NCBI GenBank assembly: GCA_951406725.2
Contig: OX597818.1
Coordinates: 131,378,001 to 131,442,000 of the forward strand
Source of the DNA: Octopus vulgaris
Taxonomy: Eukaryota
Direction: 5' to 3'
Length of the DNA: 64,000 nucleotides
The notes below the pieces were generated by a model. It did no database searches, was not told the DNA's origin, and saw only the letters and a program-made list of their open reading frames with translations. This document shows, piece after piece, positions 20,662 to 55,746 of the stretch; position 1 is the stretch's first letter; each line of letters begins with the position of its first letter. Made by a program: the position numbers and the translations under genes.

Positions 20662-20925
20662 ACCGGAGTAAACACATAAATGTGAAACAAGGTGGAAAAA
20701 AAGAGTACTCAAATACCAGTGGTAGAGTAATATGCTTTATTTAAAGCAGCAGAAAATTCAACAAAATCTGTTACTCTGAGTTTCTCGTTGCCATTCAGCA
20801 GACAGTTTTTGTTAGAATGGAACTGATATCGGTTCCATTCCAACAAAAACTGTCTGATGAATGGCAACGAGAAACTCAGAGCAACAGATTTTGTTGAATT
20901 TTCTGCTGCTTTAAATAAAGTATAT
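20662..20925. mobile_element. Fold-back PLE pseudo-LTR-like palindrome with a hammerhead in each arm
   Basis: Arms 20730-20827 / 20828-20925 centred on GATATC. Right arm CTGT-CTGATGA-ATG-GCAA-CGA-GAAA-CTC-A-GAG-CA-ACAG. Flanked by (TA)n. Confidence 0.75.
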
Positions 20926-20958
20926 ATATATATATATATATATATATATATATATATA

Positions 20959-21186
20959 GGTTCAGTAAAATTTAGATTCAGATGAAAATGGTACTTAAGT
21001 TGAAGGCACCAGAATTTAGTATGGTAATATCCATATAATTTAAACTAAGGTGATTATAATCAAAATAAACAACAAGGATATCCAGAGGTAGTGTAGTACG
21101 ATCGTTTCATGCAACTCCAATTAAATAGAGTCACATGAAAAGATCATACTGCATTACCTCTGGATATCCTTGTTGCTTATTTTGAG
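20959..21186. mobile_element. Fold-back palindrome in (TA)n centred on a hammerhead 3' half
   Basis: Arms 21061-21111 / 21134-21184; minus strand has GAAA-CGATCG-TA next to the loop. Confidence 0.65.
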
Positions 21187-21502
21187 TATATATATACATA
21201 CACACACACACATATATGTTTGTATATATGTAAAGGTAAGATCCAAGGATCAAGGTGTAGGAAGTTAGTAAGCTTCAAGCAATCTGTAGAAGGTATAAAA
21301 AAAACAACATTCATGAACAATAGTAGTTTATTGGTATCGAATGTTGTAAATTTTTCCCATATCAAAAGTTCAATAAGCTGAAAAGGTGATTTTATAGTTT
21401 ACAGTTACCAATTGAGTTTGCTGTGTATGCAAATAAAAACCCAAATTTCAAGAATGGATCAAATTTATGGAATGGAGTATTTGCTCCATTCCCTAAATTT
21501 GG

Positions 21503-21680
21503 ATTTTTCCTCTGTCTTCCCTTCTCTGGATCTTTCCTTCTCCTATGTTTCCGACGAAGAGCTCCACTCAAAACATTAAACCCTCCTTCTTCCCTTCTTT
21601 CCTGAGCGTCCAATAATACTATATTTGTTACACGTCCTCACGTTCTTGTGTTTTTTTGCATTTTCTTGTTTGGATCAACT
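21503..21680 (+). mobile_element. ~200-bp HHR mini-element (GAAA mutated to AAAA)
   Basis: GTTT-CCGACGA-AGAGCTCCACTC-AAAACATT-AAAC; homologous to 46848-47051; ends at (TA)n. Confidence 0.75.
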
Positions 21681-21834
21681 TTATATATATATATATATAC
21701 GTTTATATATTTGTTGTGCAAAATTTTTATTGGCTAAACTGGCAAAATGACCATTCCAAAATATAACAATATATATATATATATATATATATATATATAT
21801 ATATATATATATATATATATATATATATATATAA

Positions 21835-22166
21835 TAATAAATATAATAATAAATAAATCCAAATTTACAAGGAAAAATCAGATTTAAGATTGAATCCAAT
21901 TTTATAATGAAATATTATATTATATCAAATTAGAGACAAAACCACTATTATGCAAATCAAACAAAGAAAGACTTAAGCCAATACATAAAATAATTTATAT
22001 AAATTAAAATTTAACATATGAATAACCACTACGATCGTTTCGCGTCAGCACATCGTAGTGGTTATTCATATGTTAAATTTTAATTTATATAAATTATTTT
22101 ATGTATTGGCTTAAGTCTTTCTTTGTTTGATTTGCATAATAGTGGTTTTGTCTCTAATTTGATATA
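21835..22166. mobile_element. Fold-back palindrome (115-bp perfect arms) plus tail, in (TA)n
   Basis: Arms 21921-22035 / 22052-22166 are exact reverse complements. The loop on the minus strand contains GAAA-CGATCG-TA. Confidence 0.8.
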
Positions 22167-22715
22167 TATATATATATATATATATATATATATATATATA
22201 TATATATATATATATATATATGTATATATATGTCAATGTTATGTATGTTAAATTATAATGTTATAAACAGCAAACATTCACTAGATAAAGTTGTAAGCTG
22301 CTACAGATGAAATTAGAGGTCCCAGTCCACCCATTTTGTGTAATACACACACATATATATATATACATATATACATGTACACATATATATCCACATATAT
22401 ATACATACATATTCATACACACTGCAAAATATTGATGATGATGATGATGGTGGTGGTGGCGATGATGAGTTGTAGAGCACCTGAGCAATGTATATAAGGT
22501 AATTATAATTATGATATGAGATATATATATGCATGTGTGTGTGGAGGGGTGGGGTAGTAAAAAAAGTTACCTCAAAATCATTGTCACCTCTTTTTGGGGC
22601 AGTTTTTAAATAAATATTAAACCTTAATTCATATACTGAGACCTATATGTAGTGATTTAAAATGAGAGGACATAATCTGAGGGTAGTTTGATTCGTCCAG
22701 GAAATTTTTTGATAT

Positions 22716-23098
22716 TCTTTACTTTACTTACTTGTTTCAGTCATTTGACTGCGGCCATGCTGGAGCACCGCCTTTAGTCGAGCAAATCGACCCCGGGACT
22801 TATTCTTTGTAAGCCCAGTACTTATTCTATCGGTCTCTTTTGCCAAACTGCTAAGTGACGGGGATGTAAACACACCAGCATCGGTTGTCAAGCAATGCTA
22901 GGGGGACAAACACAGACACACAAACACACACATACATATATATATATATATATATATATATACATATATACGACAGGCTTCTTTCAGTTTCCGTCTACCA
23001 AATCCACTCACAAGGCATTGGTTGGCCCGGGGCTATAGCAGAAGACACTTGCCCAAGATGCCACGCAGTGGGACTGAACCCGGAACTATGTGGCTAGT
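22716..23098 (-). mobile_element. SINE family B, young
   Basis: Colinear with the consensus; head truncated. Confidence 0.9.
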
Positions 23099-52815: not shown

Positions 52816-53218
52816 CTCTGTGTGTGTGTGTGTGTGTGTATGTGTGTGTGTGTGTGTGTAAAAAAGCACCCAGTATACTTTGTGAAATGGTCGATAGCTG
52901 TAAATACCATGTCAAAGCAACTCTCTGTCTCATCTGTTCATATCAAACCAACCAAGTCATGCCAGCATGGGAAAAGAGACATTAAATGACGTTACTGCTG
53001 CAGCTGATAATGATGATATCTACACACACACCCATCAGCACATATATAATGCCATTTGTACAGGAGCAGGCAAGTATATGTAGGTTGGTGTATATTTCTA
53101 TCTGCACATATGTGCCTTTGTGTGTGTATGTGTGTGTCTATGTGTGTGTGCACACGTATGTTTGTGTGCATGTGTGTGTAAAAATAGGGAAAACATTTTT
53201 CTTTCAAATGTGTGATAT

Positions 53219-53457
53219 AGGAGCAGGAGTGGCTGTGTGGTAAGTAGCTTGCTTACCAACCACATGGTTCTGGGTTCAGTACCACTGCGTGGCACCTTGG
53301 GCAAGTGTCTTCTACTATAGTCTTGGGCCAACCAAAGCCTAAGCATAACTTAGCCATTCAGCAAAAGAGACCGATAGAATAAGTACTAGGCTTACAAAGA
53401 ATAAGTCCTGGGTCGATTTCCTTGACTAAAGGTGGTGCTCCAGCATGGCCGCAGTCA
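53219..53457 (+). mobile_element. SINE family B with an internal deletion
   Basis: Head joined directly to the 3' part. Confidence 0.85.
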
Positions 53458-53548
53458 TGTTTCTTTATTGCCCTTTTTATGTTTGGAACAGCTTCATTTA
53501 AGAAAGGCTTCAAGAATCACAACGTCCCATCTGCAGAATAAATGAATA

Positions 53549-53940
53549 GTACTTGCTTACCAACCATATGGGTCCGGGTTCAGTCCCACTGCATGGCACC
53601 TTGGGCAAGTGTCTTCTGCTATAGCCTTGGGCCGACCAAAGCCTTGTGAGTGGATTTGGTAGACGGAAACTGAAAGAAGCCCGTCATATATATGTATATA
53701 TATATATGTGTGTGCATGTGTGTTTGTGTGTCTGTGTTTGTCCCCCTAGCATTGCTTGACAACCAATGCGGGTGTGTTTATGTCTCCGTCACTTAGCGGT
53801 TTGGCAAAAGAGACCGATAGAATAAGTACTGGGCTTACAAAGAATAAGTCCCGGGGTCGAGTGGCTCAACTAAAGGCGGTGCTCCAGCATGGCCACAGTC
53901 AAATGACTGAAACAAGTAAAAAAAAAAAAAAAAAGTAAAA
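53549..53940 (+). mobile_element. SINE family B
   Basis: Colinear with the consensus. Confidence 0.9.
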
Positions 53941-54034
53941 AGATGTATTATCTGTGCTCTTTGCATTAGGTTGTAAAGGATCATGAGAATACTTTTACAA
54001 GTGATAAAAATCATCAGCGCCTGATTCAAAATTA

Positions 54035-54425
54035 TAACCTACCACTCACTGCACCACGGAAGACGCTGCCAGCTGCCACCAATCAACAAAAAGGCTGGCC
54101 AGGCAGCAAAAACCCTGCGAGAATCAAGTCTGTTGGTTCGAGGAGCACAACTGTTCAACTCCATTCCGGTACATGTCAGAAATCTATCAGGATGCAGTGT
54201 GGAATCATTCAAATTGCAACTGGATAGATACTTAAGCACCATTAGAGATGAACCCCATCTCCCAGGATATACACAACGAGCACAAACTGACTCAAACTCG
54301 CTCCTACACATGTCAAATTTAAGCAGAGAATACAACCTGGCAACCACACCAGACTCTGAGGGTGGAGTCTTCGACTTGGCCTGAGCATGGACTCAAACCC
54401 AAATGAAATGAAATGAAATGAAATG
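54035..54425 (+). mobile_element. CR1-like LINE 3' end with (GAAAT)n tail
   Basis: VRGAQLFNSIPVHVRNLSGCSVESFKLQLDRYLSTIRDEP...SNSL matches the CR1/L2 ORF2 C-terminal FN.LP...FK..LD motif. Confidence 0.85.
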
Positions 54426-55391
54426 TCCTCACACAGCTCATGATTTATTTCATGTGATAAAATCTGAATGTGTAATTAGCTTTGTATTTTGCTACTTGTG
54501 AAGCTTCCATTGTTATTCTGTCCAATTTAATTTCATGTATTGTTTTTTTTATGATGAGTGTTGCAATAAATGTCTTGTTGTAAATACATGAAGAAGTGAC
54601 AAGAAAATGATGCAGCTATAATGTCCAATGTAACTTGTTTGATTAATGAAGTCTACAACTTTCATATTTGTGTTGAAATTTGTTTGTTATGACAAATCAG
54701 AGAGATCCATCTGCTTGGAATTTTCCATTTAGACATCTGTTAAAATAAGGAATTCTGAATTTCTCTTTTATAAAAGACAAAACGAACAAATATGAAATGC
54801 CAAAGATTTTGCAACACAAAACTAAACTGGATGTACTGACACTCACTATCAAATGCAATTACTACTATATTGATTAACAACATTGGTTTAAACTATATAT
54901 CTGAAGAACTGATGTGAGCTGAAAGAGCTTGCACAAAAATATATATACACATATGTATATTAATATAGATCTATGACTCGATCTATGAACTAAAATTTGT
55001 ATTATCAAAAAAATTAAAATATAATAAATTTAACTAATTAGAACTACCAGTGAAGTCATTCTTTTACTTTTTTCAAATATACCTACTTGTACCAAGGATC
55101 TCACACATTTTCCTATATATACATATATATATATATATATATATATATATATATATATATATATATATATATATATATACAAAATATGAGGGTTTAGTTC
55201 ATAGGTGATATAAAAGAAAGTTTAGGTACACCTGGTAAGTGCTGTAACGGATTACTAAGGCTTCAAGGTTATAGCTGAGAGGGTAGTTTTAGAGCCAGTG
55301 CAGATTTCTGATATAGCGGATATATAATTTTTGAAGAGGACTGTCCTCTTTAACAATTAAATATATATGTGTATATATATATATATATATA

Positions 55392-55746
55392 GGTGAGAAA
55401 GTTGGTGTGTGAAAGCACATGGTTGAATATATAGAAAATAGTAAAAAGTGAAAAAATTACAGAAGGCTTGTTTTAGAAGGTTAAAAAATATATATTTGAG
55501 TCATTATGTCAGAAGAATGTTACAAATTTTTTTCATACACTTCTTTACACTTCATAACGAAATCATAACACAATGTTTTGAGAAATTTGAAAAGTTAACA
55601 TGAAACCGGTAATTTCTTCAAAAACTATGTCACTGTATGAAAAAAAATTATAACATTCTTCTGACATAATGACTCAAATATATATTTTTCAACCTTCTAA
55701 AACAAGCCTTCTGTAGGTTTTTCACTTTTTACTATTGTCTATATAT
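55392..55746. mobile_element. Fold-back palindrome (~110-bp arms) with a decayed HHR in the spacer
   Basis: Arms 55427-55538 / 55636-55746. Spacer has AGAAAT-TTGAAAA-GTTAACAT-GAAA-CCGG-TA-ATTTCT. (TA)n flanks. Confidence 0.72.

Follow-up and report, generated by a model that had tools for sequence, protein, structure and literature searches.

Among described systems, Penelope-like elements (PLEs) compare most closely with six inverted duplications, numbered P1 to P6 in order, that lie in a 64,000-nucleotide stretch of the Octopus vulgaris genome (contig OX597818.1, positions 131,378,001 to 131,442,000; the whole stretch is called the window, and positions are counted from its first nucleotide). 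An inverted PLE architecture is already in print (PMC8557442, PMC3846280, PMC4209133). In endonuclease-positive (EN+) PLEs, an inverted 5′-truncated copy placed head to head, a tail on one side and a preference for (TA)n targets are typical (Craig et al. 2021, PMC8557442; Arkhipova et al. 2013, PMC3846280), and the same accounts describe a hammerhead ribozyme (HHR) in the pseudo-long terminal repeat (pLTR), an intron near the HHR and tandem parents. The octopus insertions share these features but differ in that both partners are usually tiny and lack open reading frames (ORFs), and in that tails reach about 100 nt rather than 30 to 40 nt. They also share with the minimal PLE hammerheads of Cervera and De la Pena (2014, PMC4209133) type I cores (among them the U3-A8 variant), a palindromic stem III, an unpaired base before stem II and opposite-strand pairs 100 to 700 bp apart; in the accessible text of that study, truncation points are unmapped and C4 cores, present here in P5 and part of P1, go unmentioned.

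For the Poseidon element PAc of Anolis, in vitro work on the protein described nicking and extension of both strands from two internal reverse transcriptase (RT) start sites bounding the tail, AT-rich targets and a template consisting mainly of uncleaved RNA (Frangieh et al. 2024, PMC11167929), all of which have counterparts in octopus. The Poseidon PAc HHR overlaps the start codon, whereas that of P6 sits 3′ of the ORF stop. Non-LTR retrozymes (bioRxiv 10.64898/2026.07.22.740005) are likewise non-coding, PLE-derived and equipped with a type I HHR; as far as that preprint's available text goes, they are head-to-tail tandems or monomers, whereas the octopus elements are inverted pairs with variable 5′ ends. 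Membership of the retrozyme class was rejected for the window elements, which are inverted pairs; where P2, P3, P4 or P6 pattern matches lay close together, they were almost always, as judged by eye, in minus-then-plus order.

HHR function in EN+ PLEs has been called unclear, and the origin of their tandem and inverted structures is said to await a mechanism, in the accessible part of PMC8557442. Literature searches turned up no study that maps PLE truncation points relative to the HHR cut, none that explains PLE inversions by twin priming and none that describes such palindromes in cephalopods, although relevant data may exist in supplements. On these open questions, new evidence of modest weight comes from the cleavage footprint and from the argument against self-priming presented below. 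Surplus cDNA ends at the scissile bond are in vivo evidence of a type so far missing for cleavage, and the analysis could be scaled up by one genome-wide alignment; the arm data also separate self-priming from twin priming.

Anatomy, parentage and abundance of the insertions

The six palindromes are read here as head-to-head pairs of 5′-truncated PLE ends inserted in (TA)n and produced by twin priming rather than by snap-back of one cDNA, a joint reading that we consider fairly probable. Self-BLAST recovered the inverted duplications at the places identified in an earlier interpretation made from the letters alone (the sequence-only reading), which had also described them as TA-flanked and tailed on one side: 20730-20925, 21055-21190, 21912-22177, 45258-45569, 47136-47316 and 55427-55746, with E values of 3e−38 to 1e−125. 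In all six, (TA)n abuts one side of the fold-back and a tail of 35 to 100 nt the other.

Arm ends are given relative to the predicted HHR cleavage site (the cut), with + denoting 3′ and − denoting 5′ of it, and L-numbers denote loci of family copies. P1 (20662-20920) comprises a tail (20662 to ∼20734), a tailed arm with its sense on the minus strand (∼20735-20827) and an untailed arm with its sense on the plus strand (20828-20920), both ending about 58 nt 5′ of the cut. P2 (20960-21184; L131) has its tail at 20960 to ∼21054 and arms at ∼21055-21124 and ∼21118-21184, which turn inside stem-loop II (−28/−31). In P3 (21834-22161; L161), the tail (21834 to ∼21925) is followed by arms at ∼21926-22058 and ∼22052-22161 that end within the HHR (−29/−6). 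P4 (45266-45665; L251) has its untailed arm on the left and its tailed arm, with sense on the plus strand, on the right, and its seeming lack of a tail reflects a TA expansion (45562-45587) within the tail; its arms end at +9/+11, leaving this copy with no HHR, although the family has one (stem III ACACGTGT). P5 (47073-47305; L195) has a tail at 47073 to ∼47139, a tailed arm ending at −27 and an untailed arm ending at −65, and the two arms meet in 6 nt of microhomology that is related to stem II. P6 (55392-55746; L221) has a 35-nt tail, a tailed arm ending at +22 and an untailed arm ending at −72.

Three of the six families were linked to parents encoding RT and a GIY-YIG endonuclease, which the sequence-only reading had proposed to search for. 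P6 arms continue into an RT frame (RVT_1, E value 3e−7; L233) and into GIY-YIG (L241 and L250; E values 0.0015 to 0.003, below the curated cut-off), and the P6 parents carry CX4CX2C upstream of GIY-YIG, as given for Neptune and Nematis in PMC8557442. P5 forms tandem arrays (L199; coding parents L199, L200 and L213) in which an ORF end is followed by pLTR plus tail and then by the next ORF. L213 matched GIY-YIG (E value, 0.004) and RT-like motifs were judged by eye, while Pfam gave no match on the L199 frames and two homologues; the homologues, 55 in number, carry no informative names. For P1, only the endonuclease end was linked, the GIY-YIG C terminus lying 1.2 kb upstream in L289 and L304, colinear over 1.5 kb. 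On the basis of a motif, P1 and P5 may be Nematis-like. In the P3 family, a GT-AG intron of 1231 to 1316 nt ends immediately before stem I; 24 junctions are spliced and 7 unspliced, and this loss shows an RNA intermediate. These three parental links, together with the precise intron loss, identify the palindromes as PLEs. The earlier proposals of PLE origin, ORF-less arms, TA targets and minimal dimer-type HHRs are borne out.

If the insertions were instead miniature inverted-repeat transposable elements or fold-back DNA transposons, with the arms as terminal inverted repeats, the TA targets and inverted arms would be accounted for, and a mariner ORF does lie inside one P3 inverted pair (L341/L343). 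We give this explanation almost no credence: the arms run into RT/GIY-YIG frames (P1, P5 and P6), the P3 intron is precisely lost, which contradicts a DNA transposon with terminal inverted repeats for these four families, and the elements have variable 5′ ends and centers, one-sided tails and conserved hammerheads.

Several further PLE features were noted. A decayed RT-to-endonuclease remnant (37143-37766, plus strand; 33% identity to the P5 parent over 229 amino acids) lies about 500 bp upstream of a complete type I hammerhead at 38291-38333 (plus strand; U3-A8 core, stem III ACATGT). This and a second complete type I hammerhead at 42393-42465 (minus strand; CTGATGA core, ACCGGT) are outside the six palindromes. 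Four P1 copies (L281, L289, L297 and L304) carry a TA tract that separates the end of the endonuclease from the pLTR, and several solo arms seemingly stop at this tract. L341 to L344 represent a 4.6-kb inverted pair of unspliced P3 arms enclosing a mariner-like transposase frame, duplicated at two places on C1. L233 and L236 share one junction, of an inverted P6 arm to an ORF start, which suggests that an inverted arm can itself be transcribed and then inserted anew.

The assembly searched comprises 2.8 Gb in 227 contigs. Exact pattern matches numbered 4348 for P1 (tail/TA junction), 3366 for P2 (arm pattern), 444 for P3, 820 for P4 and 671 for P6, and the P5 search gave 56 candidates; a DNA query with the P1 tail gave no match and the pattern search was used in its place. 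A sample of 100 spaced 10-kb stretches (1 Mb) contained 20 TA-flanked, non-simple fold-backs of at least 90 bp and at least 79% identity. At least 8 of the 20 carried GAAA-palindrome-UH, against 0.7 expected from shuffles, and this is an undercount, since L039 has a full HHR yet lies outside the eight. The window is about fivefold richer in fold-backs than the sampled average, and the sampled density, about 20 per Mb, extrapolates to roughly 5 × 10^4 genome-wide. Such fold-backs are a large potential source of hairpin RNA and could matter for A-to-I editing in a cephalopod.

Long-read chimeras or assembly artefacts are a very improbable source of the palindromes. The P2 junction of the window itself is not crossed by any short-read contig, but arms differ by 2 to 8% and start at two fixed family-specific sites, there are hundreds to thousands of copies with differing junctions, and short-read contigs from four runs in three studies contain other head-to-head P2 joints. 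P2 contig joints near the cut were left uncounted, since a mismatch in the window copy may contribute to them.

Arm lengths, alleles and junctions

Both arm ends were mapped at 180 loci picked by their tail only, and 89 of these were clean head-to-head pairs; loci from the P6 anchor search were 300-bp stretches, which limits partner calls at those loci. Counting differences of more than 10 nt, the untailed arm was longer in 34 pairs, the tailed arm in 25, and 30 were about equal. The 22 least diverged pairs were split 8/6/8 in the same order, and asymmetry did not grow with age (rho 0.07 against arm divergence; 73 pairs). At polymorphic columns, the two arms agreed at 450 of 474, with 24 discordant against 188 expected, so both arms usually copy one template haplotype. 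Exceptions were two P2 pairs in which linked subfamily sites differ between arms, namely L151 and the window copy L131, whose arms are alleles from different subfamilies, and L167, which joins a P3 arm to a P1 arm (a single case, with a non-TA left flank). Junctions of the 89 pairs showed microhomology of at least 2 nt in 39, inserted bases in 33 and a blunt join in 17.

The sequence-only reading had the palindromes made by a reverse transcript snapping back on itself, close to the self-priming by which PMC3846280 interprets inverted junctions. To fit the present data, one tailed cDNA would have to self-prime, its second strand hop to the target at an internal TA-like site, and a rapid asymmetric deletion remove part of the center. 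The alleles common to both arms, which are the chief evidence for this rival, would be expected, as would the near-equal ends, which often fall at short palindromes such as CTAG or ATATAT; short ends sit at TA-like motifs, and central deletion of long palindromes is a known process. The longer untailed arms and the independence of the arm 5′ ends rule out simple snap-back, because a copy of a tailed first strand cannot outgrow its template and an untailed first strand cannot supply the tail. Later deletion would be needed in all 34 such cases, of up to 423 nt of one arm and with no age trend, and snap-back cannot yield the two-subfamily pairs, the P3-P1 join or the untailed arms without an inverted partner that made up 24 of the 98 arms found without tail selection. 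Snap-back followed by deletion is thus unlikely, and the earlier proposal is not upheld on this point.

In twin priming of L1 elements, two target nicks prime two cDNAs that are joined by microhomology, producing an inversion, and the cDNAs copy non-overlapping RNA segments. The octopus cDNAs overlap, unlike those of L1, and the product is palindromic. Overlapping twin priming, with two primed cDNAs, likely explains all insertion classes by one mechanism and is favored over snap-back. An RT/GIY-YIG protein would nick both strands of the TA tract, and each nick would prime reverse transcription at one of two fixed internal sites, the stretch between them forming the tail. Both cDNAs would usually copy the same template haplotype toward the RNA 5′ end, and their 3′ ends would be joined via microhomology or a few added bases.

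Three points weigh against the reading of the palindromes as twin-primed PLE ends. Tail and partner calls for the 98 arms use score thresholds, and old copies may be misclassified. Allele concordance is equally predicted by snap-back or by homogenization of the arms. No colinear coding parent was found for P2, P3 or P4 by tblastn with six PLE fragments in loci of up to 1.5 kb, with no genome-wide protein search made.

Hammerhead ribozymes and the position of arm ends

Among the six palindromes in the window, near-complete HHRs are confined to P1 (both arms, one core change each), P5 and P6. In the untailed P1 arm (20850-20887, plus strand), the motif is CTGT-CTGATGA-...-GAAA-CTCAGAG-CA-ACAG, with U16.1 changed to C and a predicted cut before 20884; the tailed arm (20768-20805, minus strand) has the changed core CTGCTGA and a predicted cut at 20772/20771. 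P5 carries AGATAA-CCGAAGA-stem II-GAAA-CTCAGAG-TT-TTATCT (47213-47275, plus strand; predicted cut before 47270), and P6 carries AGAAAT-TTGAAAA-...-GAAA-CCGG-TA-ATTTCT (55581-55617, plus strand; predicted cut before 55612), of which TTGAAAA is a U3-A8 core variant. P2 and P3 retain only the GAAA-stem III-UH half. The palindromic stem III sequences listed in the sequence-only reading are present at the mapped positions.

At the family level, a motif search found full type I hammerheads in 31, 32, 26, 21, 15 and 52 arms of P1 to P6, respectively, with CTGANGA, CCGANGA or TTGAAAA cores, a stem I of 4 to 6 bp and a palindromic stem III. P4, the one palindrome linked to a hammerhead only tentatively before, therefore belongs to a family with a conserved type I HHR. 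Compensatory variants were seen in stem I of P2 (GCAG/CTGC versus GTGG/CTAC) and P4 (TAAC/GTTA versus TGAC/GTCA) and in stem II of P6 (GC..GC versus GT..AC). Folding of single strands did not recover the full active fold and co-folding favored dimers; the HHRs are putative and their activity is predicted. A relaxed HHR scanner gave 34 matches per Mb against 8 to 10 in shuffles and overlooked C4 cores. An Rfam scan of the window was uninformative, with no hammerhead among the 150 listed of 308 matches, which were mostly miRNA models on repeats.

The sequence-only reading placed the turning point of five palindromes inside or within 45 nt of an HHR, set there by the ribozyme fold. The turns of the 89 pairs range from −277 to +160, which does not fit a turn fixed by the fold, and lying within 45 nt is near-automatic in P1, P2 and P5 because their arms start about 40 nt from the cut. 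A statistical tie of the turning zone to the ribozyme across families did stand. In a hazard analysis of tail-anchored loci, with six duplicates removed, the hazard per 100 nt was 0.17 to 0.22 farther than 45 nt on the 3′ side of the cut, rose to 0.9 between +45 and +3 and to 2.1 at the cut itself, fell to 0.8 between −2 and −50, was 1.6 between −51 and −100 and dropped to 0.05 to 0.3 beyond −200. P3 and P6 provide the real test because their RT starts lie 118 to 178 nt from the cut; over the 4446 nt lying 3′ of +45 the two families together had 4 ends, whereas the 8027 nt between +45 and −100 contained 73, a difference of about 10-fold. Median arm length followed the start-to-cut distance (rho 0.82 over 12 non-independent arm classes), and a clock running from the cut fitted better than one running from the RT start, by 32 log units (logL −1365.5 versus −1397.8), with hand-chosen bins.

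The strongest hot spots differ from the cut, lying at −71 to −81 in P3, −44 to −47 in P1 and −56 to −65 in P5. The P3 cluster is the 5′ end of a short first exon spliced to the HHR exon, and the P1 hot spot is also a CTAG palindrome. Judged from genomic arm ends, these look like transcript 5′ ends. Two RNA 5′ ends would then lie near the ribozyme: a putative transcript start located 10 to 45 nt 5′ of stem I and the HHR cleavage site, the latter in a minority of RNAs. The presence of these RNA 5′ ends, and not a snapping back of the fold, is the likely reason why most arms stop in a zone of about 150 nt around the ribozyme. A P2 cluster at −77 was discarded as a diverged subfamily rather than an arm end, and a P4 cluster at +32 proved to be an indel artefact and was relocated to about +13; the P2 HHR span was set too long in the end analyses (−91 instead of about −84).

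For ends at the cut itself, 453 arms were gathered by seeds 3′ of it, two duplicates were dropped, and a left-truncated survival analysis was applied. Thirty loci from a whole-palindrome search were left out of all end statistics because the center of the query is shared by selection. The cut was passed by 285 of the 316 arms reaching +2, so uncleaved RNA is the main template, as in the available account of Poseidon PAc (PMC11167929), and the template is not normally HHR-processed as had been supposed. The other 31 ended at −1 to +2, against 12.6 expected, with pooled counts from −3 to +3 of 0, 1, 8, 7, 10, 6 and 0 per base. By family, ends at the cut numbered 10/42 in P4, 10/75 in P6, 6/70 in P2, 3/55 in P3, 2/30 in P5 and 0/44 in P1; none of the 12 arm ends in the window coincides with the cut. 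Collapsing linked arms (three at L238, two each at L462 and L383) left 27 events (P = 3e−4), and simulated junctions revealed no mapping bias toward the cut (78 true, 75 called). In 94 pairs with both arms seeded, the longer arm ended at the cut in 12 and the shorter arm did so with a passing partner in 3, although double counting of a few pairs is possible; the pattern is as expected if both cDNAs ran to the end of a single cleaved RNA.

Read from sequence, the ends at the cut are likely a fossil sign of occasional ribozyme cutting of transposon RNA in the living cell. RT pausing at helices or microhomology supplied by the stems could instead give an end excess near the HHR from structure alone, with no cleavage in vivo. 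Some joins do use stem sequence (L193, stem I; L195, stem II-like), the hazard is already raised at +45 to +3, and 90% of arms pass the cut. However, RT would first meet stem I, on its 3′ side, at about +6, in a stretch with few ends (7 at +3 to +6), and the spike stands at the scissile bond; the sequences 5′ of cut-ending arms are mutually unrelated and rarely resemble stem I. Structure alone is a quite improbable source of the excess of ends near the HHR.

Other considerations count against occasional cleavage. P1 shows no spike, and taken singly only P4 and P6 reach significance. A shift permutation, in which each family's cut was moved at random, gave only P = 0.033 (0.042 without P4) because other hot spots are equally strong. 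The −1 to +2 window and the likelihood bins were chosen after the data had been viewed; a first window of −2 to +2, with a P6 coordinate in error, gave 29/321 against 13.6 expected. Cleavage, RNA 5′ ends and transcription starts are inferred here from genomic sequence. In vitro, HHR cleavage was unnecessary, and RNA sequencing detected no ends at the site in the part of the Poseidon PAc study available (PMC11167929), whereas about 10% of octopus genomic arm ends lie there.

Tentatively, and with somewhat less confidence than we place in the origin of the palindromes, metazoan PLE hammerheads may cleave in the germ line during retrotransposition at family-specific rates, and a dimeric RT may make two copies of the 5′ fragment, cleaved or capped, one from each of two start sites; the templates may sometimes be two RNAs, possibly paired via the palindromic stem III. 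The share of arms ending exactly at the cut ranges from about 0% in P1 to about 25% in P4, and would be higher if ends trimmed back to +20 were counted. Were cleavage in the germ line confirmed, tens of thousands of palindromes would serve as a fossil assay that reports, at base resolution, on ribozyme activity as well as on overlapping twin priming.

Some junctions at the cut are unusual. In L228 (∼1380-1850), the P6 sequence of both arms meets, precisely at the cleavage site, the upstream half of another hammerhead, with stem III ACTCGAGT and a mismatched stem I, possibly through RNA recombination or a template jump at the cut. At L238/L239, three P6 arms in direct and inverted order begin at the cut behind the same 45-nt foreign sequence.

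Other repeats were also identified. A TA-flanked repeat of ∼250 bp occurs at 45678-45922 and 46829-47072, in inverted copies 900 bp apart with 88% identity, and also at 21500-21680; it is probably a separate short element family. An open frame resembling a BTB/T1-type tetramerization domain gene exon by eye (L079, 1135-1875) belongs to an unrelated host gene. Lastly, a small perfect palindrome at 55961-56006 is centered on a TA tract and resembles two abutting short repeats.

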